Notes under the pieces: model-generated
Told to the model about the DNA's origin: nothing
Seen by the model: only the letters and a program-made list of their open reading frames with translations
The model's database searches: none
Source: a virus
Lineage: Duplodnaviria > Caudoviricetes
IMG/VR virus record: IMGVR_UViG_3300038436_000160
Span: 1-58,954 of that record
Length of the DNA: 58,954 nucleotides
Direction: 5' to 3' (one strand)
Shown here: piece by piece, positions 201 through 58,931 of the stretch
Layout of the letters: every line of letters starts with the position of its first letter
Numbering within the stretch: the first letter of the stretch is position 1
Translations under genes and position numbers: made by a program

Positions 201-244
201 GTCCCTTTTTGAGCTGGTCACCGTACTTTGCTCGAACCTAAGGC
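201..244. other. Candidate left att junction, core GAGC 211-214
   Basis: gtccctttttGAGCtggtcac aligns with ttcccctatgGAGCgggatac at 58850-58870; the downstream TCGAAC mimics the tRNA T-loop TTGAAC with a +5 bp shift. Confidence 0.5.
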
Positions 245-374
245 CTCTTATCGAGCCTAGTTTGGAACTCCAGCTTAGTTTTCTTAAAGAACATATTGGC
301 ATCAAATCTTTCGCTGTCACTTATCAATAAGACGTCTTTATTTTACTTTATTAACCCCTGTGGACACAAGGTTG

Positions 375-391
375 TTTCTGTCACTTTCTGT
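375..391. repeat. 17-bp repeat TTTCTGTCACTTTCTGT, copy 1
   Basis: Identical to 18896-18912. Confidence 0.7.
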
Positions 392-497
392 TGTTGCGCT
401 GATCTTGAGTTAGATGTATTGTATAATACCCATAACCTACATTAAAGATTATTCTTTATAGTAGGACATTTCTCGGTGGGTTAGTTGCCGTTTTTAA

Positions 498-812
498 ATG
501 ACTATGAAAGATACAGGCTCAAAAAAGAAGCCACAAGTAAAGATGACAGTCTTCGGGACCGCTCCGGTGAGTTCGCGCGGTCAAATTGTTATACCTGCAA
601 AACTGCGTAAAGCTCAGAACATTAATCCTGGTGATACTTTAATCTTTACCGGTAATCCTGATGCGGGATACTTCCATGTATTGAATGCTAACTCATTTAA
701 GGGATTTACTAATGATTTGAATAATCTTGTGTTCAATAACAAGTCAGAAGAAAAGCCTGTCAAAAAAGACAAGAAGACTAAGTCTTCTACCGAAAAAGAA
801 TACGGAAAATAA
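498..812 (+). CDS. AbrB/MazE/SpoVT-family DNA-binding protein
   Basis: VSSRGQIVIPAKLRKAQNINPGDTLIF signature. Confidence 0.85.
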   Translation: MTMKDTGSKKKPQVKMTVFGTAPVSSRGQIVIPAKLRKAQNINPGDTLIFTGNPDAGYFHVLNANSFKGFTNDLNNLVFNNKSEEKPVKKDKKTKSSTEKEYGK

Positions 813-1035
813 AATCTCCAACTATTGTTGCTACCGCCGCCGCAATACTGATCTTCACTGCCAAAGTACTTACCTTTACTTTTAAGTCGCTAACATCCGC
901 TTGTAATTGGTGTAAGTGGTTTTCTTTAATTTCCTTGAGCTCTTTATTCACAGAACCAAACCCACCATCAACCCGTTCTTCGAGTTTGGCTACCCGCTCG
1001 AGCATTTCAACGGTGTTTACTGGTTCGTTGTTCAT
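787..1035 (-). CDS. Small coiled-coil protein with C-terminal TM helix (lysis-cassette accessory)
   Basis: Coiled coil followed by a hydrophobic C-terminus; last gene of the lysis operon. Confidence 0.6.
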   Translation of the reverse strand: MNNEPVNTVEMLERVAKLEERVDGGFGSVNKELKEIKENHLHQLQADVSDLKVKVSTLAVKISIAAAVATIVGDFIFRILFR

Positions 1036-1037
1036 GG

Positions 1038-1262
1038 TTAGTTGGATTCAATATATTTACTATCGGTGAGCCATTTCCTAATGGTATTCACAACGACTGA
1101 CCAGAAAGCAACAACAATCGGAGTCCATTGGCCGAAGTCTATATTGGGAATCTTTTCAGTCAAATACGTTAATGCTGCTCCGAGGAGTGCAATTCCCAAA
1201 CCCGTACCAAGCTTTTTAAAGTCGTCGACTGTCAACTGATATTTTGGGCTGGTAACTATCAT
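1038..1262 (-). CDS. Putative holin (2 TM)
   Basis: 74 aa with two hydrophobic helices and a basic tail; follows the endolysin; GGAGGTG SD. Confidence 0.65.
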   Translation of the reverse strand: MIVTSPKYQLTVDDFKKLGTGLGIALLGAALTYLTEKIPNIDFGQWTPIVVAFWSVVVNTIRKWLTDSKYIESN

Positions 1263-2326
1263 GATTTTTCACCTCCTTTAGGTAATTTGTTACTGAGATA
1301 CTGAACAACTAGAGAAAAAATTAATTGTGGAGTTGGGACCAACGTGCCCTTTTGACAGGCATCCAACTGGCTTTTGGCCTCCTGAGCATCGTTGAGAGCT
1401 CTCCCCTTGGCTTTATTAGCCTCATCTAGCTGGCCCTCCAATACCCCAATCCGAGCTTGTGCTAAGGGGAGGGCATCTGAGCCGTTTTTGAGCTGTTTAT
1501 TCAACGCGTCAATCAGAGCTTTATAGTATTTATCTTTGTCTAGCAAATCCTTCTCAAGTCTGCCAACTTGTTCAGTTCTATTGGTTATCTCCTGGGTGGC
1601 TTTGCTGACTTCAATAGACTTCTCATTTAGCTTGTTAGATAGGTCAGTTTCTCTACTTTTATACCCTCCGACTATACTCTTGATTCTGTCGCTGGGGGTA
1701 GTGTTAGGGTCGTCTGCAACCTCTAAAATTTTGAGTGTATCGGCCCACTTGGTTGCGGAAGAGACAACCTGCTCGTACTTGGTCCGCCATTCAGGTGTGT
1801 TTGGCACCAGACAGCCTTCAGGAGCAGAGGTAGTGCCTTTTTCTTTCTTGTATTTTCTGAGCTCATCAAAGAACTCCTGGGGGTTAATTGCTCCGAAGTA
1901 GCCATTGTTATAGTTGTCACTGACAAATTTGCCATTCTGAAGCTGGCCTCGTTTTACAGTTAAATGGAGATGACTACCGGTACTGTTGCCGGTATTATCG
2001 CTGATGGCCAGCGTGTCACCTTCGTTCTTATTCTCAAAGTTTTCAATGGATTTGCAGTGAGCATAGGTCAGCTTGTAAGTGTTATAAAGTTGTACGATGA
2101 CTTCAACGTACAGCCCGAAGCCATCATTTCCTTCGTTGCCTTGCGTATAAAATTTAGAAGCCCAAGAAGAGAGAATATTTCGAAAGCCTTGTGGAGTATC
2201 GGGAAACTTTGTTTTTAAGTCCCAGCCGTTATGTCCTTTGAGTCCAAACCGAGCATAGTCTGCGGGGTTTTCTCCAAATCCCTGGTTTAGTTCAAATGGT
2301 TCAATTGGTCTGGTTATATCTGCCAT
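1259..2326 (-). CDS. Endolysin: M23 peptidase plus long C-terminal coiled coil
   Basis: M23 zinc motifs GHNGWD, YAH and TGNSTGSHLHL. Confidence 0.85.
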   Translation of the reverse strand: MADITRPIEPFELNQGFGENPADYARFGLKGHNGWDLKTKFPDTPQGFRNILSSWASKFYTQGNEGNDGFGLYVEVIVQLYNTYKLTYAHCKSIENFENKNEGDTLAISDNTGNSTGSHLHLTVKRGQLQNGKFVSDNYNNGYFGAINPQEFFDELRKYKKEKGTTSAPEGCLVPNTPEWRTKYEQVVSSATKWADTLKILEVADDPNTTPSDRIKSIVGGYKSRETDLSNKLNEKSIEVSKATQEITNRTEQVGRLEKDLLDKDKYYKALIDALNKQLKNGSDALPLAQARIGVLEGQLDEANKAKGRALNDAQEAKSQLDACQKGTLVPTPQLIFSLVVQYLSNKLPKGGEKS

Positions 2327-2332
2327 AACTGT

Positions 2333-5300
2333 TTATCTATAAATCAAACTCTTAATACTTTGATTGTCTGTGGAACTGGGCACATTCTTCAATGGATTTA
2401 GTGTTGATTTCTGTTCATCACTGTCCGTTTCTTGAGGAATACCACCGGGAAGAGTCGTTTTTAATAAGCGTTGTAAATCATTCGCATTGAAGGTGATGCT
2501 GCTTTGGAAAAGCGATGCTTCTTTAGGATCGTCTTTCATCAGAAGCGGGACAACCTGTGGAATTAGCTTTTCCGCTTCCTCATTCCACCTCAGTGCCATT
2601 TGCTGTGCTCCCTGAAGATCACCTGCCTCGACAAGCTTCTTCATTTGCAGACGGGTGGTGTTGTAGCCTACCTCGGCTTCATATTTGATATCCCAGGCTC
2701 TACGTTGTTTCTCACCGCCCTGAGTTCGGTAAAAACGATCCATTGTAAGTCCGAGGACATCTGCAGGGCTCAATAGCTCGCGCGCCAGGCTCCCTGTAAG
2801 CCCGTAAACGGCGTGTGTGAGCTTCATGGGGCTTACACCAAGTGCGCGACCGATTGTGACTGCTAAATCAGGTGTTCTACTATCGTATTGTTCTGATGGG
2901 GCGACCTTTTCTAATTTTCTTGGGACCACTGGAAATCCGGTGAAGAAGTTTGTGTTTGTGGCTATTTCAAGAGGTGTTCGAATAATTGGTGGTAAGGCAC
3001 CAGAGAAGAATGCTTGAGATGATAATTCTCCATCCCTTGTAAATGGAACTGGTGCCAACTGGCTCATCCATTCCAGACCCAGCTTAAAGAGATTCTGAGG
3101 TTCCTGCTTACGCACGTACTCAAATGAGTACATCAGGGGGTTGAAGAAAATTGTCCCGACATCACCTTTAGGAATCTGGATCACTTTGGGAACTTTATTA
3201 CCATCCTCATCTTTTTCCTCGCCGACAATAATGATGAAGTAGGTATCCTTTGCCCACTGTGGGATGTCATCCCACAATTCCTCATGGTTCATGACATTGT
3301 AAAAATAAGTAGCGATTCCAGGAAGAACAGTCATGGCAAGAGCTCTGGCGGCAGTCCGGACAGGATTATCTTTCATGACACGGGTGACATTTAGTAACCC
3401 TTGCCAGCGGGCATTTACAAACGGAACCCACATATTAATCAGGCGGGCTTCAACTCCTGCTTTGGCAAAGTCGACAGTGACATTTCGTGCTTCAAATGCT
3501 GCTTCTAAAGGACTGGCACCTTTGCTCAGAGCTTTTTTGTAGATTCCGAGTCGTGGAGCAAGCTCTATGGCTTCAGAAAAGTTTCCTATCAGCTCAAAGG
3601 GATTAAGGACCGCTTTTGTCCTTTCCATCCATCTGGGTCGGAATAATTGCTCAGAAGCAACTGATAGCCCTTTTGTTGATTCAATGTAGCTCCCATAGCC
3701 ACCTTGGTTTCTCATAAATTCGTCGTAGGCTTTAGATTCCCATTTAAATGCTGAGCGGAAACCGTCTTTAAATCCTGATAACCACACCGCAGGATTAAAA
3801 CCGTATTTGGAAACCATCGTAGCGGTTTGATAGTCACGGACTGCATTGGAGAGGGTGAAAGGAAAATAAAGAGTTGTTGTACCTGCCTTGAACGCTTTTG
3901 AAGACATCATTACCAATTTACCCATCAGGCCCGACTCTGCCGGACTCATGGCATGCATGGCTTCAGACAACTCTTTTGGCACAGCCCAGCGTGTTACCTT
4001 GCCACCAATAAACACACTAATTGATTCCCAATCTTGCGGAGCATTTTCTTTATTGGGTAAAAATCTAATCAACCCCTTGGTTGCATCAGGATGAGTCTTG
4101 CGAAGCTCTACCAATTTCAGGGCTACTTTATTTCGCTCCACTAGACTAACTGCTTTGGTGAGGTTGTCTATTACGGAGATAAATGGATCCCGAATGACTT
4201 TGTCTGTTCCTTCAAGAGCACTCACAACACCCTGTTTACTTACTGAGAATGTTTCAGAGCCGACTGCCATCTTATCTGCTTCTTCCAGTGTGGGGATGTA
4301 TTCCAGAACATGGAATGGTAACCAGTTTTTGTTTTTCTCTACGACGGCGTTGAAGGCTTTGTTACTTAAAATACCGGAATCTCTCATGGGCTCGAGAATT
4401 GCTTTCACTGCCCAATTCTGCATTCCATTACCAACTTGTTGGAATGTTTGAAATGTTTTATCACCAACTTTAGTTTTTAGTTCTTGAAGTGCTTTTTCTG
4501 CAGTTTCTTGGGTAACTTCAAGTGGATTTTCAACACCTCTGGCGGCTCTTTCTGCTGTTCTCTGGGCAAGTACGTAGCGAGTAAAGTCTGCCCGTAATTT
4601 TCTGACAGGTTGAAGTGCTGTATATAAATCTCGAAAACTTCCTTCTACGATGCCAAAGCGTCCGGCGTACATTCTGGCGCCAACATAAGGACTTGAATCA
4701 ATATCGATAGGCTTTCCTTGCAGTTTACTCACCTTGTTTTCAAACTCCCGAATAGGGGCAAAGCGGTCAGTAAATAATCTTGGGAAAACCTGGATTGCTT
4801 TTTTGGCTTTGTCCAAAAGATTTGCAGCAGGAGACAGTTTTCCAACCATTGCATCGATCTGACTTAAAGCACTCCCTTCCGGTGATGACGAGTCAGAACC
4901 GATAGGCGTTTCCTGGTGAGGTCTGGGAGGACTACCTGGCGGTGGATCTTTCATTTCATCTACTCGCGGTTGTTCCGGTGCAACTATTTGACCTTCGCGC
5001 CGTTTTTGAATGAGAGTTGTTTGTGATACATCCTTGTTAGTTCGTTCAAGTTTTTCTAGTTCGGTTTCACCAGGGACTCGGTATTTATCTCGTATCTCTG
5101 CAGCTTTGGCCGCTTTTTGATCTAAAACGGAGAAAGAGGTGGTTAGCGGAATGGAAGGCTTACCATCAACAATAGGTACTACATTTTTGGGGTCAAAAAT
5201 GACCATTTGATTCAAACCTTTGACTCCGTCATACCCTTTCTTTTGTAGAACTTCAGTAATTTTTTCAGGGTCGCCATACTTAGTCGCTTCGGTGTAGAGT

Positions 5301-6925
5301 TCATCAATCTTGCCGGACCAGTTGAAAAGTTTTAATCCTTTTTTAATCTTTGTGTCTATTACTGTACCGTATAATTTTGCTCCTTCACCACCTGGGGTAA
5401 GATCCAAATAAACACCCTTACCCATAACTCCGCCATAACCGCTCGTTTTTCCGGACTCCGCTAAACTAAAGCCTTCCTTTAAGATCTTTTCAGGAACTGG
5501 CGTGCCATGTTTATATGTTTCTGCACTTAACTCAGGCTGCTTAGAAGGGGTAACCGGTATTTTGTTTTCCATGGCCACTGTCACTAAATCAGCATCGGTT
5601 AGTTCTGCAACTCGTCCAAGTCTGGTTTTCGCTTCCTGTCCTCCAAGCGCAGTTACGATTTCACTTCTTTGAGCATCGTTGAGTGTGGCTCTGATTGAAA
5701 GGCCTGCAGGCATATTGCGGACTGCTCTGATGATGATGGCTCTTTTGTCAGGAACATTTTTCCAGAGTTCGTAATAAAGGTCCTGGAACTCCTGCCTGAA
5801 AGATTTGCCGGTATATCCAGTGGGATTGCTTACTTTTGCTAAAAACTCATAGGCTCTATTAGCTGTATTCCAGGCTTGATTAAATTGACCCATCTCTTGT
5901 GGTGTTTGGTTGGCTTGGGCTGGAAACTGTTTAGTAATACCTACTACTTTATTTTTCCATGCTTGTTTGACCTGTTCTGCTGTTGCAGTCTCATTTATTC
6001 CAAGATATTCGAACGCTTGTTTTTTGGTTATTTTCAATTGTTCGCTGGCAGCTTTCTCAATCTGGCTTTCTACAGCTGATTTGTTGGGTAAATACTTTGC
6101 TACAGCAAAGTTAAGAGAGTGGAGTCCAATCATTGCTGCAGTATTTTTTAGAGCGTCTTCATTGGAGTCGCCTTTAATAAGCGAAGTAACGTAAGTTGCT
6201 GGCCCGATAATTGCAGAAGACTTAAGAAATGAAGGTTTCATTCCGGCAATAGAAAAAGCTCCACCTAAAGCGAAATCACTGACAAAGTCTTTAGCGCGGT
6301 GTTGTGCATCTTTGTAGGATTCTTCTTTTTGTAGTTGAGTTAGTCCTGCAAAGGTAAGTCCATTCGAGAGTAGGCTAAATGTTCTTGGAGCAACTGTGGC
6401 GACTCTGCCCAGAAGAGGGACACCTTTTAGTGCTCCTTGGACAAGACCGCCACCTACGACAAAAGTTCCTATTGTTCCTAAAACATTAAACTCTACCTCG
6501 GTCATGTCGCCGGCCATTTTTTCAATGTCATTGGCATACTTTATTTCGGGATTCCACCAGCCAAAAGTTAATGCTTGAGCAAGCCCATCTCCGGCACCCT
6601 TCAAGGCTCCGATTGTGGCACTTGGCAAACGCTCTAGTACATCTGTGTCTCGGGCACCCAGACCAAGTGTTTGAGCGGCCGCTTCTACATAAATATTTTT
6701 AAACGGTTTATATGATCCGGTTGTAGGACCTGGAATGGCAATATCGTATTGTTCAGGCTTTAGTTTTTCGAGCGGTTTTAGGATGTCCTGAATTTTTTCG
6801 GAGCCTGAACGCACTAATGAAGAAGCCGCTTGTTGTGATTTCCCAAAGATGCCACCAAGAGTCTGACTCGTATTCTGAATTGACGAGGTAATATTTTTCT
6901 TGAGTTGTGATAAAAAGTTATCCAT
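2333..6925 (-). CDS. Large ejection/polyvalent protein (J-like, ART-like and LPD38-like domains)
   Basis: Likely start MDNFLSQ. J-like AFEYLGINETATAEQVKQAW; ART-like YKHGT..GKGVYL..GYDGV..QMVIFDP; C-terminus resembles LPD38. Confidence 0.7.
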   Translation of the reverse strand: MDNFLSQLKKNITSSIQNTSQTLGGIFGKSQQAASSLVRSGSEKIQDILKPLEKLKPEQYDIAIPGPTTGSYKPFKNIYVEAAAQTLGLGARDTDVLERLPSATIGALKGAGDGLAQALTFGWWNPEIKYANDIEKMAGDMTEVEFNVLGTIGTFVVGGGLVQGALKGVPLLGRVATVAPRTFSLLSNGLTFAGLTQLQKEESYKDAQHRAKDFVSDFALGGAFSIAGMKPSFLKSSAIIGPATYVTSLIKGDSNEDALKNTAAMIGLHSLNFAVAKYLPNKSAVESQIEKAASEQLKITKKQAFEYLGINETATAEQVKQAWKNKVVGITKQFPAQANQTPQEMGQFNQAWNTANRAYEFLAKVSNPTGYTGKSFRQEFQDLYYELWKNVPDKRAIIIRAVRNMPAGLSIRATLNDAQRSEIVTALGGQEAKTRLGRVAELTDADLVTVAMENKIPVTPSKQPELSAETYKHGTPVPEKILKEGFSLAESGKTSGYGGVMGKGVYLDLTPGGEGAKLYGTVIDTKIKKGLKLFNWSGKIDELYTEATKYGDPEKITEVLQKKGYDGVKGLNQMVIFDPKNVVPIVDGKPSIPLTTSFSVLDQKAAKAAEIRDKYRVPGETELEKLERTNKDVSQTTLIQKRREGQIVAPEQPRVDEMKDPPPGSPPRPHQETPIGSDSSSPEGSALSQIDAMVGKLSPAANLLDKAKKAIQVFPRLFTDRFAPIREFENKVSKLQGKPIDIDSSPYVGARMYAGRFGIVEGSFRDLYTALQPVRKLRADFTRYVLAQRTAERAARGVENPLEVTQETAEKALQELKTKVGDKTFQTFQQVGNGMQNWAVKAILEPMRDSGILSNKAFNAVVEKNKNWLPFHVLEYIPTLEEADKMAVGSETFSVSKQGVVSALEGTDKVIRDPFISVIDNLTKAVSLVERNKVALKLVELRKTHPDATKGLIRFLPNKENAPQDWESISVFIGGKVTRWAVPKELSEAMHAMSPAESGLMGKLVMMSSKAFKAGTTTLYFPFTLSNAVRDYQTATMVSKYGFNPAVWLSGFKDGFRSAFKWESKAYDEFMRNQGGYGSYIESTKGLSVASEQLFRPRWMERTKAVLNPFELIGNFSEAIELAPRLGIYKKALSKGASPLEAAFEARNVTVDFAKAGVEARLINMWVPFVNARWQGLLNVTRVMKDNPVRTAARALAMTVLPGIATYFYNVMNHEELWDDIPQWAKDTYFIIIVGEEKDEDGNKVPKVIQIPKGDVGTIFFNPLMYSFEYVRKQEPQNLFKLGLEWMSQLAPVPFTRDGELSSQAFFSGALPPIIRTPLEIATNTNFFTGFPVVPRKLEKVAPSEQYDSRTPDLAVTIGRALGVSPMKLTHAVYGLTGSLARELLSPADVLGLTMDRFYRTQGGEKQRRAWDIKYEAEVGYNTTRLQMKKLVEAGDLQGAQQMALRWNEEAEKLIPQVVPLLMKDDPKEASLFQSSITFNANDLQRLLKTTLPGGIPQETDSDEQKSTLNPLKNVPSSTDNQSIKSLIYR

Positions 6926-6930
6926 ATGTT

Positions 6931-7998
6931 TTAAACTCCAGGTGTAAACAGTCTCCTTAAGAAGCCCATGACACCTGGCTGGGTTTTTAATTGCCATTCT
7001 TCATCGATCACTTGTGTTGCTGATTTTCCTTTGTCCGTTGTTACGCCTGAGAGGTTAGTTTTGAGCTGATCTGCGTTATAGCCCTGTTTCCAGGCAGATC
7101 TGATTTCGGTTCTTAGATCACCTTCATTTACTGTGGTGGTTTGTGATTGACTCGATGGCTGTTCGTAAAGATTTGTCTTACCTGAGGTTGGATCGAAGAA
7201 ACCAACGACATTACCAAAGGCATCCTTGACTTGTTGTTTGGCGTAAGTTCCGCTACCGCCTTCACCAGCTCTTAACCTGCTGGTTTGAGCGTCGTAGAGT
7301 TTGAGTTCAAATTCCCGCTCCCAGCGTTCATCTTCTTTTGCCGAGGAAAGTTCAGACGACCTGATTTGGTTATAGGTATTTAAGAGACCACCTAAAAATT
7401 GGAGATCGTAGCGGAGATTATTCAGTTTGGCTTCTTTGCCCTGGGCTTCTGAGGTTACTTTACGGGTTATTTCGCCCAGACGTGCATTGTAGTCTTCTGC
7501 TTTGGCATTTCGTTCTTCAATGAGATTGCCAATCTTAGCATTGGCGAGGCGCTGAACCTCTCCGGACTCTCCGGTTATGGTGGCCGCTGAATAGCCTGGG
7601 TTCTTGCGAATCTTACTGACTGACTCATCGCGAACATTTTTCTCACTTGCGATGCTTGTATCCAAAGCACTAATGGTATCTTTGAGTTTGCCTAGTTCTG
7701 CCTTGACGTATTCCTCGTCATAACGCCTTGTCTGATAGGTTTCGAGATCAGAAGATAAATCCTGGGCTTGCTTATAAGTATCCTGGAATTTAGAGTTGAG
7801 CGTTCCTACATCAAAACCCAAGATACTAGAACCGCCAACCTGAGAAAGCCCGCTACTTAAGTTGCTGACAGATTGTTGTTTGCCTGGTTCATCACCGGTT
7901 GTGTAAATGTCTTTGCCAGAGGCATCAGTTCCCCACCATCTGAGAGCTTTATTTTGATCTGGTTGCCAATACCAACCGCCGTATTGTTTATCTGCCAT
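6931..7998 (-). CDS. Putative internal virion (ejection) protein
   Basis: Helical/coiled-coil protein between the fibre gene and the large ejection protein. Confidence 0.5.
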   Translation of the reverse strand: MADKQYGGWYWQPDQNKALRWWGTDASGKDIYTTGDEPGKQQSVSNLSSGLSQVGGSSILGFDVGTLNSKFQDTYKQAQDLSSDLETYQTRRYDEEYVKAELGKLKDTISALDTSIASEKNVRDESVSKIRKNPGYSAATITGESGEVQRLANAKIGNLIEERNAKAEDYNARLGEITRKVTSEAQGKEAKLNNLRYDLQFLGGLLNTYNQIRSSELSSAKEDERWEREFELKLYDAQTSRLRAGEGGSGTYAKQQVKDAFGNVVGFFDPTSGKTNLYEQPSSQSQTTTVNEGDLRTEIRSAWKQGYNADQLKTNLSGVTTDKGKSATQVIDEEWQLKTQPGVMGFLRRLFTPGV

Positions 7999-9545: not shown

Positions 9546-9549
9546 AAGT

Positions 9550-35800: not shown

Positions 35801-36030
35801 CTTTAGAGTGTCTGCCAATTAAAAAAATTAGCATTACAGAGCAAGAGGTATTTATTAGTATTGTCGACGAATTACTGGCATTGGGAAGTGAGCCAAGTTT
35901 TGATAACGATAGTTCCAAACGATTAACGCTTTCAAAACTACAGGAAAAGATTGATTCAATGGTATATGGCCTTTATGAGTTGAATGAGAAAGAGGTTGCC
36001 ATTGTGGAAGGAGGCAGTAATGTTTCCTAG
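32839..36030 (+). CDS. Eco57I/type IIG-like N6-adenine DNA methyltransferase with TaqI-C-like specificity domain
   Basis: YLNGGLF, GSYYTP, DPACGSGAF, NPPY, KILIRQT, LLNS. Confidence 0.9.
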   Translation: MMNLNEKYNRDEFINFLSEIFLQDYQRDVRPISTSDYKSINKAFSLGRSESLDLQVFEFEYSGSFNKRIALAKDAFQVMKQSAVFQALAVFHSHGSDDWRFSLMTANPQKTDRGGVALAYSNPRRYSFFLGPNAKVNTPIKFLLKRGTVHNLVDLKDRFSLEVVNKEFYKEISENFVKLVGGTLGVGRGKTTYKGVLKLPSIPEHSQISAEFAVRLIGRIIFGWFLREKRSPDSGSLMPRELLSLDAAKTNKDYYHSILEPIFFEILNQPVKSRKDAYFKEPYSLIPYLNGGLFSPHESDFYKRRNGDLQSQFHNTVVVPDEWFVEFFQTLETYNFTIDENTSFDEELSIDPEMLGRIFENLLAEINPETGESARKSTGSYYTPRMIVDYMVDESLLLYLKQHTSISEEKLKAIISYDLTDDSEYPLNEDEKQEVINALERVKILDPACGSGAFPIGALQKMVFVLQQVDPEGHLWFKKQIKSTSPEIRRVIEREFTHKNFDYIRKLGVIRENIYGVDIQPIATEISRLRCFLTLVVDERIDDSLENRGIEPLPNLDFKFVAANSLIGLPTTNKQVQVGLFEDNEGISELKEIRDMFFNASGSERDALKLQFVQAQNKMFQRLISEGRRGHADLTTKLTSWDPFSNKASSWFDPEWMFGINEGFDIVIANPPYISYGLRGTQKMTPEERKTLVSFYPNSAEYKISIYAIFMDKAIQLSKVDGGIQTYIVPDSFLLGRYFSKVRGQILNHCEIIHLSWMPYKIFEATVGFSIVYTFHRKISINPDHKLAARYIANNNQISDKTYQEFKYRQAYFKAQKHHRFRMFFDKKTMDLVDKIEHETVPLGDYFIGRTGVRSLIGQKNIVAKEKKTETWQKGLTSGGQILKYRIKYDDDYINIDPKLLNKGGWDYDVIHNPKILIRQTADSLTASLDTNNYYHLNNVHSFAPKNPDGEIKLKYLLSLLNSRLFTWFYQTTSLETGRTMAQTDIETLECLPIKKISITEQEVFISIVDELLALGSEPSFDNDSSKRLTLSKLQEKIDSMVYGLYELNEKEVAIVEGGSNVS

Positions 36031-38830
36031 AGGATCACAGTGGCGTAGATGGGATCTCCATATTCACACCAAAGGCACAGCCAAAAATGACCAATTCACT
36101 AGCGATACTTTTGACGATTTCTGCATTGATCTTTTTAGGAAGGCCATCGATAAAGAAATAGCAGTTATCGGTATTACTGATTACTTCGCTATTGAGAACT
36201 ATAGAAAAGTTGTGGACTTTGTTCGTAACATTGACACTTTTACTAACACTAATACATCTGGGCAAACTATCTTTTCGAATGATGATAAACAGAGAATTAA
36301 AGAAATATTTATACTTCCCAATGTAGAACTTCGAATGATGCCTAGCACTAACAGTGGGCGTCTGGTTAACATCCATTGTCTATTTAATCCAGAGTTTCTT
36401 GGTTTTATTGAAAACGATTTTTTTGGGTCCATTGAATACTCAGCTGGTACTGCCACTAAGTTTAAGATGAATAGGCAGGGCATGATAGGTTTGGGAAAGT
36501 CTCTTGACTCGAGTCTAAATGAAGAAGTTGCATACAAGAAAGGATTGGCTAATTTTGTTGTTTCTCATGGAGATCTCCAAGCTTTATATGACAATAACAA
36601 AAACTTTAGAAACAATGTTGTCATCGTAGTTAGTAATTCCAATAATGATGGTGCTTCAGCATTCCAACAGCATTATGATTTGTTCGAAAACAATACTGAG
36701 AGTCAGTTAGATGCCGTTCGTAAATCGATCTACTGCATATCTCATGCGGTATTTTCAAGTAACCCAGAAGATAGAAAATATTTCTTAGGAGAACGGGTCG
36801 ATAATGAGGAAGTAGTTTCTGAAAAATGCGGTTCACTTAAACCATGCATACATGGGTCCGATGCTCACACAGAAGATAAGCTCTTTAATCCAAACAATAA
36901 TCTATATTGCTGGATAAAAGCAGACCCCACTTTTGAAGGACTGAAACAAATAATTTGGGACCCGAAAGAGAGAGTAAGGATTCAAGAGAGAAATCCTGCA
37001 GACAGCAAATCAGGCAGGATTATTATTGATAACATTACATACAAAGACGGCTCTGGACAAGTGAAAACGGTTCCCTTAAATCAGGATCTTAACTCAATTA
37101 TTGGTACTCGTGGAAGTGGTAAATCTACTCTTCTAAAGAATATTGCCTCAAAAGTTGATCCTATTCAGTTTTCTGAAAAAGACAAATTCGATAAGTTATA
37201 TAACTTGGACGAGTTCAAGGTTCACTGGGGAGATGGCGAGGAAGATCATGGCAATGATGACAGTCCAAAGAATGTATTTTATATTCCTCAAAATTATCTG
37301 AGTTCTCTTGCCTACGAAGAAGAAGATAAAGCACAAGAGCGAGATAAGTTTTTAACAAAACTCCTTAAAAAACACATTCGATTTGCTAATGCAATCCAGT
37401 CTTATGAGGAGTTTGTTTCGAACAGTAAGATACAAATTGAGGGACAGATTCAAGATTTACTGAGTGCTAATTCAACATTAATTGAAAATAGTAGCTTACT
37501 TAAGAAGCAGGGCTCTAAAAAAGAAATTGAAGGAGAAATATCGAACAAGAATGATGAGATCAAAAAATATAAAGGTTCAGGTGATCAGGCAGTTACCGAA
37601 AAAGAATTAGAAGATTATTCTGCTGCTAAAAAGACAGCTAGTGAAAGCAGCGATAAAATCATCATCTTGAACCAAGATAGAACTATTTTAGATGCGCTTC
37701 AGCAAAATGAAACGAACGTGCTCGTTACTAACCAAGAATTCAACAGACTATCTATTAAAAGGCAGGAGGCCTTAAGAGAAGAGTTAACAAAAAAGGGCAG
37801 GGAGAATTTAACAGATCTTATAAAAACTGAGATAGCTAAGATAGATCAGGAAATAAAAACCTTGAATAAGATTATTGTTGATCAAAATAAAATTATTGGA
37901 CCGTTAGACAAAAAGATTAAAGCAAACAAAGCGTTAGAAGGACTCACCAAGGAGCTTGCGGATTTGCAAATAATTCTTTCAAAGATAAACGAATATACAG
38001 AGAAAATAAAACAGGCAACAGCTCAAAAAACTGAGGCTATAGGCAAGTTGGTAGATTCCTATGCTAACTTTGATAACCAACAGCAAGCAATTTTTGGGAC
38101 TGCTCAATTTGATGATACCTTTTCTTTCTTAAAAATAGAAACAGTAACTGTCTACAACAGTAATGATCTAAAGAGATTTGTAGAAAGAAACATAAATACA
38201 AGAGATTCCGATCCCCAGGTAAAACAAGAGGAAGATATAGTTACTTTGTTCAGTGAATCTCCCATTAAACCATCAGAAGATACTATAAAAAAAGTTATCG
38301 TTGGCTTAGTAGATGGAAAAATCAAAACAAAGGTTGAAGTTAATGATGTATCACAAGTTATCTCACAACTACTAAAGAATAGATATGAAATTGATTACTT
38401 AAACTCGGTGAAGACTAAAGACGAAAATACTCATTTTAAAGACATGACTGGAGGACAGAAAGCCATAGCCCTTCTTGAGCTTGTTTTTAACTATGACGAC
38501 GAAAAATATCCGATCTTGATTGATCAGCCAGAAGACGACCTCGATGTCGTTGGCGTGGCAACTGATCTAGTAAGATTTGTGAAACAAGAAAAAGAAGAGA
38601 GACAAATAATCATTGTGTCTCACAATGCCAGTTTAGTCGTATGTGCTGATACAGAAGAAGTGTTGGTTTCCGAAAGTCATAGACAAGAGAATGGTAAGTA
38701 TGATTTCTCCTACCAAACAGGGGCGATAGAAGATTTAAATGTCAGAGACGAGATAATCAGGGTTTTGGAAGGTGGGAAAGCTGCTCTCAAACAAAGAGCT
38801 AGAAAGCTTAATTTTAAGCATGAAATTTAA
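36020..38830 (+). CDS. PHP phosphoesterase plus ABC/AAA ATPase (TrlF/Ppl-like defence protein)
   Basis: WDLHIHT, ITDYF, GSDAH; GTRGSGKST, MTGGQK, LIDQPEDDLD, VSHNA. Confidence 0.85.
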   Translation: MFPRGSQWRRWDLHIHTKGTAKNDQFTSDTFDDFCIDLFRKAIDKEIAVIGITDYFAIENYRKVVDFVRNIDTFTNTNTSGQTIFSNDDKQRIKEIFILPNVELRMMPSTNSGRLVNIHCLFNPEFLGFIENDFFGSIEYSAGTATKFKMNRQGMIGLGKSLDSSLNEEVAYKKGLANFVVSHGDLQALYDNNKNFRNNVVIVVSNSNNDGASAFQQHYDLFENNTESQLDAVRKSIYCISHAVFSSNPEDRKYFLGERVDNEEVVSEKCGSLKPCIHGSDAHTEDKLFNPNNNLYCWIKADPTFEGLKQIIWDPKERVRIQERNPADSKSGRIIIDNITYKDGSGQVKTVPLNQDLNSIIGTRGSGKSTLLKNIASKVDPIQFSEKDKFDKLYNLDEFKVHWGDGEEDHGNDDSPKNVFYIPQNYLSSLAYEEEDKAQERDKFLTKLLKKHIRFANAIQSYEEFVSNSKIQIEGQIQDLLSANSTLIENSSLLKKQGSKKEIEGEISNKNDEIKKYKGSGDQAVTEKELEDYSAAKKTASESSDKIIILNQDRTILDALQQNETNVLVTNQEFNRLSIKRQEALREELTKKGRENLTDLIKTEIAKIDQEIKTLNKIIVDQNKIIGPLDKKIKANKALEGLTKELADLQIILSKINEYTEKIKQATAQKTEAIGKLVDSYANFDNQQQAIFGTAQFDDTFSFLKIETVTVYNSNDLKRFVERNINTRDSDPQVKQEEDIVTLFSESPIKPSEDTIKKVIVGLVDGKIKTKVEVNDVSQVISQLLKNRYEIDYLNSVKTKDENTHFKDMTGGQKAIALLELVFNYDDEKYPILIDQPEDDLDVVGVATDLVRFVKQEKEERQIIIVSHNASLVVCADTEEVLVSESHRQENGKYDFSYQTGAIEDLNVRDEIIRVLEGGKAALKQRARKLNFKHEI

Positions 38831-38832
38831 TT

Positions 38833-39588
38833 ATGTCCCAATACTATAACTCACAACGAACCAAAGGCTTATACGACCCGGCTTCTCCTGAGACGTTCAA
38901 GCTTTCTCGTTCTAAAATAGATCTTTTCTTGCAGTGTCCAAGATGTTTTTACTTTGATCGCCGACTAGGAGTAGCTCGCCCTCCTGGTTTCCCATTTGCT
39001 CTGAATTCGGCTGTTGACCATCTTCTGAAGCTAGAGTTCGATGTTCATCGAATTAATGGCACAAAGCATCCCTTGATTGAGAAATATGGCATTGATGCCC
39101 GACCTGTTGCTCATGTTGATCTTGATAAATGGCGACACAACTTCACTGGTGTTCAGTACCTTCATCAACCTACAAATCTGCTCATTTTTGGCGCAATTGA
39201 CGATCTCTGGATTAACTCTGAGGGTGAGTACATCGTCGTCGACTACAAATCTACTTCTAAGAGCGAAGTTATCACTGAACTTAACAAGGATTGGCAGGAT
39301 GGCTACAAACGTCAAATGGAGGTTTACCAGTGGTTGCTAAGAAAAAATGGGTTCAAGGTATCCAACACTGGCTACTTCGTTTATTGTAATGGACAAACGG
39401 ACAGGAAAGCCTTTGATGGAAAGCTTGAGTTTGAAATCACCCTCATTCCCTATAAAGGTGATGACTCCTGGGTCGAAAATGCCGTCACAGAGGCTCACAA
39501 ATGCCTTCAATCGGCTGAGTGCCCTGATAGTGGTGCAGACTGCGATTATTGTGCATATAGAAAAGCTGCCTATGAAATTGAGCAATAA
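38833..39588 (+). CDS. RecB/Cas4-like PD-(D/E)XK nuclease
   Basis: CPRC, GAIDD, VVDYKS, QMEVY, CDYC. Confidence 0.85.
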   Translation: MSQYYNSQRTKGLYDPASPETFKLSRSKIDLFLQCPRCFYFDRRLGVARPPGFPFALNSAVDHLLKLEFDVHRINGTKHPLIEKYGIDARPVAHVDLDKWRHNFTGVQYLHQPTNLLIFGAIDDLWINSEGEYIVVDYKSTSKSEVITELNKDWQDGYKRQMEVYQWLLRKNGFKVSNTGYFVYCNGQTDRKAFDGKLEFEITLIPYKGDDSWVENAVTEAHKCLQSAECPDSGADCDYCAYRKAAYEIEQ

Positions 39589-39590
39589 AA

Positions 39591-40877
39591 ATGACAGATA
39601 TTTTAGAAAAATATTTTGATAAGCTATCGAAAGGTATTAAGGCTAAAGCCAAGAGCCTTTTGAGTAGATTTCGTGCGTATCTCAAGCGACTTGTTTTCCC
39701 TCTTTATTTATTTCCAATTAAGCTCATAAGCTACACTGCTTACTATTTAGTTACTTTTTCTTTTAAGTTCCTTATTTCCCTGATAAGGATAGTTATTGAT
39801 GTCATTGTCTTTCCGTTCAAAAGCTTGAAGAACTTCTTGAAAGCTATGTTTGTAATGGGAACCATGGTTTACATGATTGCTTCTTTGTTTGTAATTTTCG
39901 ACTACTTGTCCAAGGAGTATGGAAACCTCGACAAATTTTTCTGTGGCGTGGGCGTGCGAGATAAAGTACAAAACTCGGTAGTCAGAGTAGTTGGTGGTTA
40001 CTCAGAGGGTACTGGCTTCTTCATTGCCCCTGATCAGGTCTTGACTAACTTCCATGTTATTGCAGATGAACCAAGCCCAAAAGTGATCTTTCCTAATGGA
40101 GATTTCATTACAGTAACCAGGATTGTCGGGAATAAAGAAGCTGATCTGGCACTACTGTACACTAATGGTGTATATCCAGATTTAGTTATGCCTTTACCCG
40201 ATAGAGTGGCCGTACTGGAAGACGAACAATTGATTGCTGCAGGTTACCCGCTTGGGACCGGACTAACAGGCGATGCAACACTTCTCAAGGGAAGAATGAT
40301 TGACTTTAGGAAGTCCAAACAAACGCCTATGGCATACATCCAGACTGATATTAGCTTGGTCGAGGGTATGAGTGGTGGCCCACTGATTGATCAGTGTGGA
40401 GCAGTAGTTGGTGTTAACACCATGAGCTTGGCTGGTATCTCATTATTCATCAGTGCTGACTGGGCTAAAATGGCTGTACCTGATCTTACCGATCAAAATA
40501 TTACCAAAATTGAGGTTGATGCTTCAGTCTCACCCGAGAAAGCAGTCGAGGCGTTTTACACTTATCTTAAAGCTCGACGGATGGAAGACGGTTTCGCACT
40601 CCTGAGTCGTGAGTACCTAACAAAAACCAACTACGAGGAATGGACAAATAGATTTACTGACATTCTGGATGTCGATGTTATTTCCACCAAACCTTTTGAA
40701 GAAACCGATGATACTGTTTCTATTAAATTTTCGACTAAGAACTGGAACGATGGTGAAGTTGACTATCATTACTATGAGGGGACCTGGCAGACTGTCGAGG
40801 AAGATGGTATGTACAAGATGCTAAAAAGCAAGATAGTCGAGGTGGAGAATCCTGGTTGGGGTTGGTATTACGAGTAA
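39591..40877 (+). CDS. Membrane-anchored trypsin-like serine protease
   Basis: GTGFF, TNFHV, DLAL, GMSGGP; hydrophobic N-terminus. Confidence 0.85.
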   Translation: MTDILEKYFDKLSKGIKAKAKSLLSRFRAYLKRLVFPLYLFPIKLISYTAYYLVTFSFKFLISLIRIVIDVIVFPFKSLKNFLKAMFVMGTMVYMIASLFVIFDYLSKEYGNLDKFFCGVGVRDKVQNSVVRVVGGYSEGTGFFIAPDQVLTNFHVIADEPSPKVIFPNGDFITVTRIVGNKEADLALLYTNGVYPDLVMPLPDRVAVLEDEQLIAAGYPLGTGLTGDATLLKGRMIDFRKSKQTPMAYIQTDISLVEGMSGGPLIDQCGAVVGVNTMSLAGISLFISADWAKMAVPDLTDQNITKIEVDASVSPEKAVEAFYTYLKARRMEDGFALLSREYLTKTNYEEWTNRFTDILDVDVISTKPFEETDDTVSIKFSTKNWNDGEVDYHYYEGTWQTVEEDGMYKMLKSKIVEVENPGWGWYYE

Positions 40878-49791: not shown

Positions 49792-49793
49792 AC

Positions 49794-51220: not shown

Positions 51221-51228
51221 ATTTGTTC

Positions 51229-54606: not shown

Positions 54607-54649
54607 GTTTGGTTTTCGTGCAACTTTTCATAGGCATTACTGTTTTTTG

Positions 54650-54937: not shown

Positions 54938-54947
54938 CTTTAATACT

Positions 54948-54984
54948 AAAGTACAGATTGTTGTAATTTACCTCAATAAACTTT
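54948..54984 (-). promoter_or_regulatory. Early lytic promoter/operator
   Basis: AAAGTTTA-TTGAGG-17-TACTTT; 19 bp identical to 56971-56989. Confidence 0.75.
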
Positions 54985-55089
54985 ATGATGATTTATGTTC
55001 ATTTGTGTAAACTATTCTCATTATAGTATGATTAGTAAGAGATTTCTTACTTTATTTGCTACAATAAATTAGTCGGGAAATTTTTAACT

Positions 55090-55548
55090 ATGAAAAATAC
55101 ACCAGTACCAAAAACCACGCTTCAGGGACCTGACGACTTTTCAACCGTCTGGGAATATCTCAGATCTATAAGAGAAGCCAAGGGGTATACGATCCGCGTT
55201 GTCATCGATTTAATAAATCAAGCCATCACAGAAGAAAAGCTGGAACCTCAGGCTGCAATATCTCGAGGTTACCTTTCTAACTTGGAGTCAGGTAAATATC
55301 TTCATCCCTCTCCTTTTAAACTCAAGGGACTGGCTGTCGCTTATAACATTCCTTACGAACTACTGCTAAATAAAGCTGGGTATTTGGATAAAACAAGTAA
55401 GAGAGTCAAAGAGGATGCAACATTTACTCTTATGTTGAAAGAAGTTCAGGATATGACAGTTCTCGAAAGACAAACCGTTCTGGACTACATCGAGTATGTG
55501 AAGTCCAGAAGGAATAAAAAATATGATAAAAGCCCAAAAAAGGGCTAG
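55090..55548 (+). CDS. Phage repressor (XRE HTH, ImmR/CI-like)
   Basis: LRSIREAKGYT..ISRGYLSNLESGK..PS..LLNKAGY. Confidence 0.85.
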   Translation: MKNTPVPKTTLQGPDDFSTVWEYLRSIREAKGYTIRVVIDLINQAITEEKLEPQAAISRGYLSNLESGKYLHPSPFKLKGLAVAYNIPYELLLNKAGYLDKTSKRVKEDATFTLMLKEVQDMTVLERQTVLDYIEYVKSRRNKKYDKSPKKG

Positions 55549-55975
55549 GCAGGTTTTGCGAAAGTACAACCTGACTACTGCCCCTATTAATTTACAGACA
55601 ATTATTGACGGTGAAGAGCTGATACTTGATAGTTGGGCATTTCATGGAAGGGTAAAGGAAGTCTACCTCGGCGACAGCATCGGCATTAACAAAAACGAGT
55701 GCCCAAAAAAACAGCGTGAGCTGATTGCTCACGCCTTAGGACACCATTTCTTACACCAGGGAAATCATCTCTACTTTGAACGACGGGATCAGTTCACCGC
55801 TTTTAAACAGGAGCACGAAGCCCAATGTTTTGCAGCAGAACTTCTCCTACCCAAAGCAGAGCTTCAAAAAGTTAAGCATCTTTCTATTGCAGAAATCGCC
55901 AACTTTTTTTCTGTCCCAGAGGATTTTACTCAGTATGGGGTAAACGTTGTTTTAAAGGGGGGCTTATGCCGCTAG
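55523..55975 (+). CDS. ImmA/IrrE-family (DUF955) protein with HALGH in place of HELGH
   Basis: RELIAHALGHHFLH..EHEAQCFAAELLLP. Confidence 0.85.
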   Translation: MIKAQKRARQVLRKYNLTTAPINLQTIIDGEELILDSWAFHGRVKEVYLGDSIGINKNECPKKQRELIAHALGHHFLHQGNHLYFERRDQFTAFKQEHEAQCFAAELLLPKAELQKVKHLSIAEIANFFSVPEDFTQYGVNVVLKGGLCR

Positions 55976-55977
55976 CG

Positions 55978-56601: not shown

Positions 56602-56697
56602 ACAAAAGCGACCTCTGTGGCTAAGCTGAATCACTATTTCTAGTGTCAACAGTTCCCTAAAAGTAAGGTACCTTCACCACAAAGGTCATTCGGTACT
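56601..56697 (-). ncRNA. Putative structured sRNA convergent on DUF3800
   Basis: Own promoter TTGACT-17-TATATT; 11-bp closing stem, GAAA tetraloop, possible pseudoknot, U-rich end. Confidence 0.7.
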
Positions 56698-56700
56698 GTT

Positions 56701-56729
56701 AATATACCAAACTCACCACCCAGAGTCAA
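56701..56729 (-). promoter_or_regulatory. Sigma70 promoter of the sRNA
   Basis: TTGACT (56729-56724), 17-nt spacer, TATATT (56706-56701). Confidence 0.75.
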
Positions 56730-56734
56730 TGCCG

Positions 56735-56884
56735 CTAGGTAAAAATCAGGTACAGCCCGAGTAATAAACCTGTAAGCAAAATACCTCCGATAACCCGACC
56801 AGAATAGTTTGGTTTACTTCTACGAGTTTCTATTGCTGAATACATAATTGGCTGTTTTTTCTCCTGACGGAAAAAGGTTGGCAT
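56735..56884 (-). CDS. Small C-terminal-TM protein
   Basis: Near-leaderless start after TGcTATGAT; hydrophobic C-terminus. Confidence 0.45.
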   Translation of the reverse strand: MPTFFRQEKKQPIMYSAIETRRSKPNYSGRVIGGILLTGLLLGLYLIFT

Positions 56885-56970
56885 GTTTTTATCATAGCAA
56901 ATTCGGGGTAATTGATCAGTAATGTACACAAGCTTCCTACTAATTTACATAAGTGGACAAACTCACTCAC

Positions 56971-57007
56971 AAAGTTTATTGAGGTAAATCAACAGTTTCT
57001 GTACCTT
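56971..57007 (+). promoter_or_regulatory. Promoter/operator of the excision-integration operon
   Basis: AAAGTTTA-TTGAGG-17-TACCTT, twin of 54948-54984. Confidence 0.75.
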
Positions 57008-57018
57008 TGGTTATAAAG

Positions 57019-57264
57019 ATGACAGAAACTGCTGCTCAGGTATCACAAAATATAGGAAATAATCCCATACTAACCAACTCCTTAATGACAAGACAGGAGC
57101 TGGATAAGTTTAAAGAAATTGTCCGTAAAGATTATGGAGTATCGCTCTCTGATGAGCAGGCTTTTGAGCAAGCTACGGCCCTGCTTAACCTGTTTGATTA
57201 CGTAATCGAGTCCCGACTTGATTCAAGGCGGAATAGAGTTAATATGAACAACAACCAGAAGTAA
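57019..57264 (+). CDS. Small protein upstream of the integrase, candidate recombination directionality factor
   Basis: ELDKFKEIVRKDYGVSLSDEQAFEQA; position and shared promoter. Function is inferred. Confidence 0.55.
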   Translation: MTETAAQVSQNIGNNPILTNSLMTRQELDKFKEIVRKDYGVSLSDEQAFEQATALLNLFDYVIESRLDSRRNRVNMNNNQK

Positions 57265-57311
57265 GATTTTTCTTACTATCCGGTACAATCAGTTTGACAG
57301 TCACTATAGCT

Positions 57312-58925
57312 ATGAATACTTGTTTTATATACTGCAGAAAATCGTCCGAAGATAAAGACCGACAAATTCTTTCCCTCAATGATCAGGAGAATATTTGTAC
57401 TGAATTAGCTCAGGATAAAGGATTCATTATTCTTGGGGTATACAAAGAGAGCAAGTCAGCTAAAAGACCAGACAAAAGACCAGAGTTCAAGGCAATGATA
57501 AAAAGACTAGCCAATGGTGAAGCTAGTCACGTTGTGTGTTGGAAAGCTGATCGCCTTTGCAGAAATGCTAAAGAAGGTGGAACACTCATCGATAAAGTTG
57601 ATTATGATGGCATGCAGATTGTCACTCCCACAATGGATTATGACCGCAATAATTCTACATTTCTTTTTATTGAATTCGGCATGGCCACTAAGTTTAGTAA
57701 GGATCTCTCAGACAACGTAAAGCGTGGCATGAATACAAAGTTGCAAATGGGTTGGCAGCCGTCTAAGGCTCCTATGGGATACCTTAATGACAAGATAAAT
57801 CCCAAGGGACAAAAAGAAATATCGCCGGATCCAGAACGCTTTGATTTATGCCGTAAGTGGTGGGAGCTTATGTTAACCGGCACTGAAACTGTAGAAAGCT
57901 CACTGGAAAAAATTACAACCCTAGGGCTTCGCAGCACACGTACAGGAAAAGCCATTAGTAAAACCGAGGCTTTTCGTTTCTTCAGAAGAGTGTTTTATAC
58001 AGGTTTGTTTGACTACAAAGGCGAGAGATACGAAGGTAAGCACCTGCCGATGGTCAGTATTGCAGAATTTAATAGGGTGCAGGAAATCATTGATGGTCGG
58101 AAAAAAGTTATCCAAAATAAGAATGACTTCTACTTCATGCGTATTTTGAAATGTGGTGAGTGCGGTTCCGCTATCACTTGTGAGACTCATACCAAGCGAT
58201 ATAAAAATGGAACTTTTCAAACTTTTACCTATGCCCGGTGTACCAAAAAAAGCAAAAACTGCAGCCAGCCTTTTCTTAATGCAAACGAGCTAGAGAAACA
58301 AGTCAGAGCGTTCATTGAGGGATTAGAAATTTCACCGGACCTGGTCGTATGGATTAAAGATAATATAAAACGCCGAAACGAGAAAGAATTCGAGTTTGAA
58401 AAGTCGCAAAAGGGCAAGCTCACTAAGCGTCTTGATGGTCTTTTGACTGAAAAGAAGAACCTCTATGGAATGAAAATAGAAGGTTTAATCAGCGAGGAAG
58501 ATTATCAGAAGGAAAAAGCCCGCCTCATGGCTGAGGAAAAACAAATTAACAAAGGAATTACCACTGATGGTATAGCGTCATGGACTCAGACTATGGAAGA
58601 AGCACTCTATTTTGCATCTAAACTTTCGCTCTTATTTGATGCGGCAAAACAGGACCCTGAAGCTCAAAGAATGATCCTAAGGATACTTGGCTCGAACCTA
58701 AAGCTAAAAGATAAAATAGTGCGAATTGACGGGCAAAAAGCGTTTGTCTTCTTCAAACAGATAGAAAAATTACAAAAAGGTGAAATTGATCCGCTCGAAC
58801 CTGAAAATGGATTGATAACTGGGGATAATCAGGCTTTTTCGCCTTCTCATTCCCCTATGGAGCGGGATACGGGAATTGAACCCGTGTTTTTTGCTTGGGA
58901 AGCAAATGTTCTACCGTTGAACTAA
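57312..58925 (+). CDS. Large serine recombinase (integrase)
   Basis: YCRKSS, DRLCRN, APMGY, CGECG zinc ribbon, coiled coil; reads through the antisense tRNA. Confidence 0.95.
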   Translation: MNTCFIYCRKSSEDKDRQILSLNDQENICTELAQDKGFIILGVYKESKSAKRPDKRPEFKAMIKRLANGEASHVVCWKADRLCRNAKEGGTLIDKVDYDGMQIVTPTMDYDRNNSTFLFIEFGMATKFSKDLSDNVKRGMNTKLQMGWQPSKAPMGYLNDKINPKGQKEISPDPERFDLCRKWWELMLTGTETVESSLEKITTLGLRSTRTGKAISKTEAFRFFRRVFYTGLFDYKGERYEGKHLPMVSIAEFNRVQEIIDGRKKVIQNKNDFYFMRILKCGECGSAITCETHTKRYKNGTFQTFTYARCTKKSKNCSQPFLNANELEKQVRAFIEGLEISPDLVVWIKDNIKRRNEKEFEFEKSQKGKLTKRLDGLLTEKKNLYGMKIEGLISEEDYQKEKARLMAEEKQINKGITTDGIASWTQTMEEALYFASKLSLLFDAAKQDPEAQRMILRILGSNLKLKDKIVRIDGQKAFVFFKQIEKLQKGEIDPLEPENGLITGDNQAFSPSHSPMERDTGIEPVFFAWEANVLPLN

Positions 58926-58931
58926 TCCCGC
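58858..58931 (-). tRNA. tRNA-Gly (CCC)
   Basis: GCGGGAT acceptor stem, UUUGC-UUCCCAA-GCAAA anticodon arm, GGGUUCAAUUCCC T arm, UCCA end. Confidence 0.95.

Follow-up and report, generated by a model that had tools for sequence, protein, structure and literature searches.

Where does a prophage end when the gene for its integrase never stops before running into a host tRNA, and what becomes of the enzyme's C-terminus once the virus leaves the chromosome? These questions are raised by a stretch of 58,954 bases that makes up one entire IMG/VR virus record (IMGVR_UViG_3300038436_000160, classed linear), referred to here as the window. Near its right end, the gene of a large serine recombinase meets a tRNA-Gly(CCC) gene lying on the opposite strand. 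A first-pass annotation, made from the letters alone, had placed an attachment (att) site inside this open reading frame (ORF) and proposed that excision swaps the end of the protein. Comparison with relatives bears on both ideas. The window is, with good confidence, a complete prophage of 58,649 bp that appears to have been inserted by the large serine recombinase at the very 3' end of tRNA-Gly(CCC), and its host is probably a Patescibacteria bacterium. Moreover, comparison across the family supports the view that positions 211-330, just inside the left end, behave as coding sequence, which is predicted to supply another tail to the integrase of the excised phage. The features on which the argument turns are the following.

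1..210, no strand: host DNA left of the prophage, predicted to have been the B arm of attB before insertion; 10 related elements have left flanks unrelated to it
211..214, plus strand: GAGC core at attL, with the predicted crossover inside; homology with other left ends starts here
211..260, plus strand: predicted P' arm of attP with GCTCGAACC at 230-238, a predicted zinc-ribbon-domain motif (family consensus, register shift)
211..330, plus strand: orphan 3' coding segment (39 codons, then TAA), the predicted integrase tail in the excised form (open frame, pN/pS, fusions)
57312..58925, plus strand: large serine recombinase in its integrated form, 537 aa from ATG (Resolvase, Recombinase and Zn_ribbon_recom domains; PHROG 95, integrase; homologues 67-78% identical)
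58810..58859, plus strand: predicted P arm of attP, the last integrase codons before the core; conserved in relatives up to GAGC, beyond which the tRNA differs
58860..58863, plus strand: GAGC core at attR, the antisense of the discriminator U and first C of CCA (right-end comparison, ARAGORN)
58858..58931, minus strand: tRNA-Gly(CCC), a host gene, with 58858-58859 (the CA of CCA) derived from the phage arm (ARAGORN)
58932..58954, no strand: host DNA right of the tRNA, beyond its 5' end, 23 nt only

Ends of the prophage

The integrase ORF (57294/57312-58925, plus strand) has no stop ahead of the tRNA and ends in ...SPMERDTGIEPVFFAWEANVLPLN. ORF coordinates and ARAGORN agree with the earlier claim that this ending is read from the antisense tRNA, which makes up the last 68 nt of the ORF, that is, the last 22 codons in the lysogen. 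At the N-terminus lies a resolvase-type catalytic domain (PF00239, E = 3.7e-22, residues 11-153), and PF07508 (Recombinase) and then PF13408 (zinc ribbon) are also found. Residues R9, K10 and S11 are invariant across 23 sequences, and a helical insertion appears as long helices at 155-257 in a low-confidence model of a relative, P0090.

Relatives of the integrase are encoded by 5 viral contigs and 22 genome loci, with 66-81% identity in 21 of the 22 genome loci and 34% in the other. Eleven of the 22 genome records are labelled as Patescibacteria lineages and eight as Gammaproteobacteria or Pseudomonadales. At E <= 1e-20, 122 of the 401 genomes sampled from the Patescibacteria phylum contain relatives of P0090. 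More distant recombinases of the clade (L073-L081, in genomes G114, G163, G363, G147, G083, G218, G340, G123 and G425) are 26-44% identical to P0090. Of these nine, the best of the more distant loci, eight have an ORF that runs 12-135 nt into an antisense tRNA for Leu, Asn, Lys or His; no tRNA was called at the ninth.

The right boundary can be read directly from these loci. In 24 of the 27 examined (all except L007, L027 and L036), the phage arm is conserved as far as GAGC; the tRNA that follows varies (Gly CCC, Gly TCC, Gly GCC and in one case Thr), and several near-identical arms meet different tRNAs. An antisense tRNA-Gly overlaps the end of the ORF in 17 of 20 genome loci scanned (CCC 7, TCC 8, GCC 2). 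The remaining three have no tRNA call; the available sequence of L032, L033 and L035 stops soon after GAGC. Three viral contigs end on Gly-GCC, Gly-TCC and Thr-TGT, and one of them continues into a host tRNA cluster.

The left boundary is seen in the same way. The left end of a related record, G003, can be aligned with the window from exactly GAGC (211), and leftward the two are unrelated. When window positions 205-500 were searched in 17 genomes, 11 gave matches; ten other left ends have the same layout, in which GAGC separates an unrelated flank from a conserved arm that ends with GCTCGAACC. Scans of viral contigs with a conserved left-end 24-mer, with the fused protein P0009 and with the tail alignment returned only G003 and two N-terminal fragments. 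Contigs from four sequencing runs (four studies), aligned to window 1-1500, agree with this boundary and show neither attP nor attB. The best runs contain 0.80 of the sampled words from window 1-1200. Among the four aligned runs, contigs match from 210/211 onward in X1, X3 and X7 and from 458 in X8, with none covering 1-200. The search for junctions that the first-pass annotation had called for returned the point where homology stops and neither of the two joints.

Two of these runs hold further observations. In X1, a loose end of 26 letters precedes 211, which may be another host flank or a variant integrase end. A 914-nt contig of X7, at depth 542, matches only the 38-nt phage arm (211-248) and then diverges; it is probably another abundant element sharing the att arm.

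An empty site is present in a relative. A search with window positions 1-210 through 401 genomes sampled from the phylum to which G013 belongs gave five weak matches; in one of them, in G227, a window-like flank joins tRNA-Gly(CCC) directly at GAGC in the right orientation. There, 26 of the 30 flank bases nearest the joint and 55 of 72 tRNA bases are identical to the window's. This is the comparison with an empty-site relative that had been proposed as a check, and the joint falls where the boundary was predicted. The weight of the match comes from its position and register. A search with the 1.5 kb host flank of G013 across 61 genomes from the G013 family returned nothing but repeats and weak gene matches, none of which adjoins a tRNA-Gly.

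Several other alignments of the two ends were considered. As the first-pass annotation had stated, there is no long duplication of the tRNA: the left end of the window holds no tRNA copy of at least 12 nt, and the idea that the left end is itself a tRNA fragment was rejected on inspection of the sequence. The best non-self match of 58600-58954 in the whole window pairs 58684-58701 with 224-241 (17 of 18 bases); it was rejected as the true crossover, given that 58700-58859 is conserved among phages sitting in different tRNAs. The alignment of 201-221 with 58850-58870, from which the GAGC boundary was originally proposed, does hold 14 matches in 21 positions. On its own this is at chance level: among pairs of 21-mers between 1-500 and 58800-58954, seven such pairs occur against a mean of 6.3 in 30 shuffles. 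The boundary model is thus supported by the comparison with relatives and not by this match.

The same comparison explains the end of the tRNA, which was earlier taken to receive its encoded CCA from the phage. Where the lysogen reads GCTCCA, both the left flank and the relative with the empty site have an A after GCTC, so the CA of the lysogen tRNA comes from the phage arm. In G227 the glycine acceptor is a 72-nt tRNA whose CCA is not encoded. Of 24 phage arms, 22 end in TG ahead of GAGC and would likewise supply CA.

Counted from core to core, the predicted prophage measures 58,649 bp (58860 - 211), the span given in the first-pass annotation. The paired ends of six other elements enclose about 33.5, 50.1, 54.1, 63.9, 65.3 and 68.7 kb (computed by hand from coordinates).

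A conserved tail beyond the left core

If the two cores are joined, the GAG codon is in frame at both sites and the frame stays open to TAA at 328-330, as had been claimed. Does the sequence beyond the core evolve as protein? Frame 1 of the tail is open in all ten complete relatives (37-46 codons), whereas frames 2 and 3 hold 1-6 stops each. Beyond the att arm, all 45 pairs, which are not independent of one another, show pN below pS, and the fewest changes fall at second codon positions. Relative to G003, the tail carries indels of 9 and 3 nt, both multiples of three. In lysogens there are merely 3-47 open codons ahead of GAGC and no conserved start. Having no start of its own and few codons upstream, the segment can be read only if a gene upstream runs on into it.

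A profile of the tail was searched against 1.84 billion protein representatives (clusters at 50% identity) and matched 95 clusters. Of these, 89 are no longer than 120 aa, and 81 end within 12 aa after the motif. In databases the tail mostly stands as an orphan ORF. At their ends the tails read ...TYQ, ...NYQ, ...ATFN or ...LSC, and none has an ending of the Ala-Ala type, although the hosts may use other proteolysis tags.

A few proteins, known from metagenome protein sequences alone, do carry recombinase and tail together. P0090 is cut at the N-terminus and is 53% identical to the integrase over 319 aa (residues 193-511), and it continues through the junction glutamate into the tail. P0009 is a complete recombinase of 543 aa, 30% identical to the integrase, and its final 39 aa share 85% identity with the tail encoded in the window. 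P0007, P0008, P0093 and P0065 are C-terminal fragments of the same recombinase-tail kind. Several independent fusions of this sort point to a frame that is kept across GAGC.

Tail-type sequences also occur in other settings. One orphan ORF, P0026, consists of the host-flank peptide of the window (VNYCTFLSL), a short piece resembling antisense tRNA, and the tail, which hints at a partial tRNA remnant beside attL in a related host. Two metagenome contigs contain longer variants of 61-73 aa: L050 at 2099-2351 and about 2921-3190, roughly 800 nt apart, and L051 at 5474-5758. These may be relics of past insertions. Being longer tail variants with no recombinase gene, they were not used as evidence for attP.

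The att core, its motif and a proposed mechanism

GAGC comprises the only bases common to both prophage ends across the family, and four shared bases are what a serine recombinase with a 2-bp crossover would leave. A crossover inside GAGC, at 211-214 and 58860-58863, is supported because other left ends break there, 24 right ends agree and G227 offers a natural empty site. Counts of symmetry do not fix the crossover dinucleotide within the core. GA or AG appears the more likely choice, since GC is palindromic.

The spacing around the core matches that described in the first-pass annotation. At the right end TTCG precedes GAGC by 18 nt, and at the left end CGAA follows it by 18 nt; both are kept in the family consensus. 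In the phage arm TCGAAC starts 17 nt after GAGC, whereas in the tRNA TTGAAC starts 12 nt after it. Consensus sequences built from 8 distinct phage arms and from 23 distinct tRNA arms show this shift of 5 bp as well. It agrees with what PMC3783163 describes for the LI integrase, whose zinc-ribbon-domain motif in attB sits 5 bp closer to the centre than in attP. Across GAGC from the tRNA, the other host arm shows no consensus. The tRNA half thus probably supplies most of the target specificity, which would explain why several tRNAs are used.

The motif GCTCGAACC of the P' arm is also found within the integrase gene. It occurs three times in the window, always on the plus strand, against 0.11 expected. 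The two internal copies are as follows.

58690..58698, plus strand: first internal copy of GCTCGAACC, within the LGSNL codons; GGC TCG are invariant codons in 19 integrase genes
58793..58801, plus strand: second internal copy of GCTCGAACC, within the LEPEN codons and 58 nt before GAGC; CTC GAA are invariant codons

In the 19 integrase genes, a single codon is kept in only 11 of 225 degenerate columns with an invariant amino acid, and GGC TCG, CTC GAA and the junction GAG account for 5 of those 11. Codon invariance of this kind argues that the two internal copies are constrained as nucleotides, and they may be extra, putative sites for the integrase or a partner.

Taken together, these features suggest how integration and excision could run. 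The serine integrase would exchange strands within GAGC at the end of tRNA-Gly. It would recognize the T-loop of the tRNA (TCGAAC-like; TTGAAC in this host) as the zinc-ribbon-domain motif, 5 bp closer to the centre, and would require little sequence in the other host arm. The recombinase gene ends on the crossover, and the lysogen form receives its last 22 codons from the antisense tRNA. In the excised circle, the gene would run in frame into 211-330 and end in the conserved 39-residue tail.

It is conceivable, in a speculative vein, that the enzymes of the infecting phage and of the prophage differ in activity or stability through their putative alternative tails. A tentative extension, which we hold to be possible and less than probable, is that the exchange of tails is a built-in state sensor, acting with a GCTCGAACC complex on attP and attR. 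The excised-form enzyme with its 39-residue tail might then be adapted to integration or to being turned over quickly. The prophage enzyme, with a meaningless tRNA-antisense tail, might be excision-permissive or inactive, for example. The three co-oriented copies of GCTCGAACC (two in the gene, one in the P' arm) would be integrase-binding sites that organize a higher-order complex on attP and attR.

Alternatives, neighbouring genes and known systems

A number of observations weigh against a complete prophage whose integrase acquires a conserved tail on excision. The CheckV completeness estimate for the record is 67%. By itself, the match to G227 has a per-genome E-value of 6.2e-4 in a search of 401 genomes. 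Neither an excised (attP) junction of this phage nor an empty site in its own host was seen, the four sequencing runs showing only where homology stops. A motif-gap-motif pattern describing the excised junction was found at no locus in viral contigs, and in metagenome contigs only in L050 and L051, with no recombinase gene upstream. Around GAGC there is little dyad symmetry, with 4-13 of 28 positions matching and a best centre that varies by element. Five database homologues of the integrase all bear tRNA-antisense tails. The AlphaFold2 model of P0090, with a mean pLDDT of 58.9, does not show the tail docked and is too poor to place it. The fused ORFs may come either from excised phage or from two elements inserted successively at the same tRNA.

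How far do these points favour other readings? The linear class of the record and its completeness score, together with the fact that tRNAs do occur in phages, could mean that the tRNA is phage-owned, the record an arbitrary fragment and its left end no att site. This is very hard to reconcile with near-identical arms that adjoin different tRNAs in host tRNA clusters, with a homology break at 211 that recurs in 10 other left ends and with the empty site in G227, and we give it almost no credence. Despite the 67% score, 58,649 bp falls within the range of the six other elements. A further reading accepts the boundaries but holds that 211-330 is never translated, its conservation reflecting DNA functions (the attP arm, regulator sites) and its frame being an ancestral leftover. 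In its favour, the first 28 nt are the att arm and are constrained as DNA, the non-coding stretch downstream is at least as conserved as the tail, and in the model of P0090 the tail follows a disordered linker and scores only about 60 pLDDT. Yet beyond the arm it is the second codon positions that change least and pN that stays below pS; the other two frames are closed, indels keep the frame, and the stop position is retained, with most profile clusters ending soon after the motif. We consider this account improbable. The fused ORFs P0090, P0009, P0007 and P0008 might instead be junctions of tandem prophages, silent on the free phage. An occupied site could still be a target, since the host arm beyond GAGC has no consensus; P0009 pairs a recombinase of low identity with a tail of high identity, and L050 holds two tail-type sequences a short distance apart. 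On the other hand, among the matches listed for the 401 genomes none extends past residue 336 of the 369-residue query P0090, so that no contiguous form is seen there. Even if the fusions were tandem, the frame is kept across GAGC in all four, as tail exchange on excision predicts. The tandem explanation is unlikely, in our judgement, and the complete prophage with an exchangeable integrase tail remains the reading we prefer.

Other parts of the prophage fit into this layout as follows.

331..497, no strand: non-coding left-end stretch upstream of an AbrB/MazE-like gene, with long invariant runs relative to G003 (e.g. 359-470)
498..812, plus strand: SpoVT-AbrB/MazE-like DNA-binding protein, the first phage gene (Pfam PF04014, E = 9e-8; PHROG 4681)
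57007..57264, plus strand: small ORF of 85 aa immediately upstream of the integrase gene; a homologous ORF lies at the same place in L004

Within the first of these, positions 340-470 are more conserved relative to G003 than the adjacent coding sequence. The 57007-57264 ORF has no match in Pfam or PHROG, and we regard it as a candidate accessory or directionality factor of the integrase. The window also encodes an SU10-like major capsid protein, a portal, an amidase, an M23 peptidase and a DUF3800 protein. At 2333-6997 lies a protein of 1554 aa with an LPD38 domain, which is typical of large polyvalent proteins of mobile elements. A defence-like gene block occupies 29558-40877, where GC is lower (0.36-0.41). 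It comprises a PLD-SNF2 helicase fusion, an Eco57I/TaqI-C type methylase, a PD-(D/E)XK nuclease, a trypsin-like protease and a protein of 948 aa with no Pfam match.

How does the system compare with known ones? Serine integrases carry out unidirectional recombination between attP and attB, which is reversed in the presence of a directionality factor. The enzymes of Listeria A118/LI, Bxb1, phiC31 and SPbeta share the three-domain architecture seen here and likewise use short att sites without a long duplication. To our knowledge, the attP of characterized large serine integrases lies outside their ORFs. In contrast to those systems, the target here would be the final bases of a tRNA, the gene's 3' end would serve as the P arm, a conserved tail lies beyond attP and two extra copies of the motif lie in the gene.

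Partial parallels exist in other recombination systems. In the archaeal integrases of the SSV1 type, attP lies inside the integrase gene and integration disrupts that gene; the enzyme there is a tyrosine recombinase of an archaeal virus, and its gene is split with no alternative short tail. Mycobacteriophages BPs, Brujita and their relatives, whose recombinase is a tyrosine integrase, also place attP inside the 3' end of a phage gene and exchange its C-terminus on integration. According to PMC6109161, PMC3694055 and PMC4557955, the gene is that of the repressor, whose viral and prophage C-termini differ, and integration removes an ssrA-like degradation tag. In the window, on the other hand, it is the integrase's own tail that would change, and there is no evident tag-like ending. 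Integration-dependent immunity is defined by attP within a repressor; here the att core lies within the integrase ORF, and a pair of helix-turn-helix (HTH) and ImmA/IrrE-like genes at 55090-55975 is intact and away from the window ends (Pfam).

Filamentous phages of Ralstonia offer two further comparisons, both drawn from PMC3816273. In phiRSS0, attP lies inside ORF13, which loses 26 C-terminal residues on integration; that protein is regulatory and not a recombinase, and the host XerCD is used at dif. In phiRSM1 and phiRSM3, a serine recombinase uses attP and attB at the 3' end of a tRNA in reverse orientation. The likeness lies in this placement of the core, reverse to int, with a core of 13 nt in phiRSM and 4 nt here. 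The phiRSM enzyme is a small one resembling resolvases and invertases, compared with 537 aa with Recombinase and zinc-ribbon domains here; moreover, its attP core lies between ORF14 and ORF15, and the accessible text describes no change in a protein tail. Literature on serine integrases, tRNA, attB and Patescibacteria, in main texts without supplements, yielded no large serine integrase whose ORF crosses attP into a conserved tail. Likewise, the main text of PMC10083194, as far as it was accessible, contains no mention of tRNA.

What, then, does this locus mean for its family? Serine integrases are prized as genome-engineering tools for their short sites and one-way reaction, and the control of direction is an active question. 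Exact ends can now be assigned to prophages of Patescibacteria, a group whose viruses are poorly known, and the IMG/VR record proves to have been scored as incomplete even though both predicted att sites are present. A whole clade appears to encode part of its own recombinase across the recombination site. With a part of the protein written across that site, the sequence of the enzyme would report the integration state of the DNA. If the exchange of tails does act as a state sensor, control of direction would not rest solely on a separate directionality factor, in a clade that is common in Patescibacteria.

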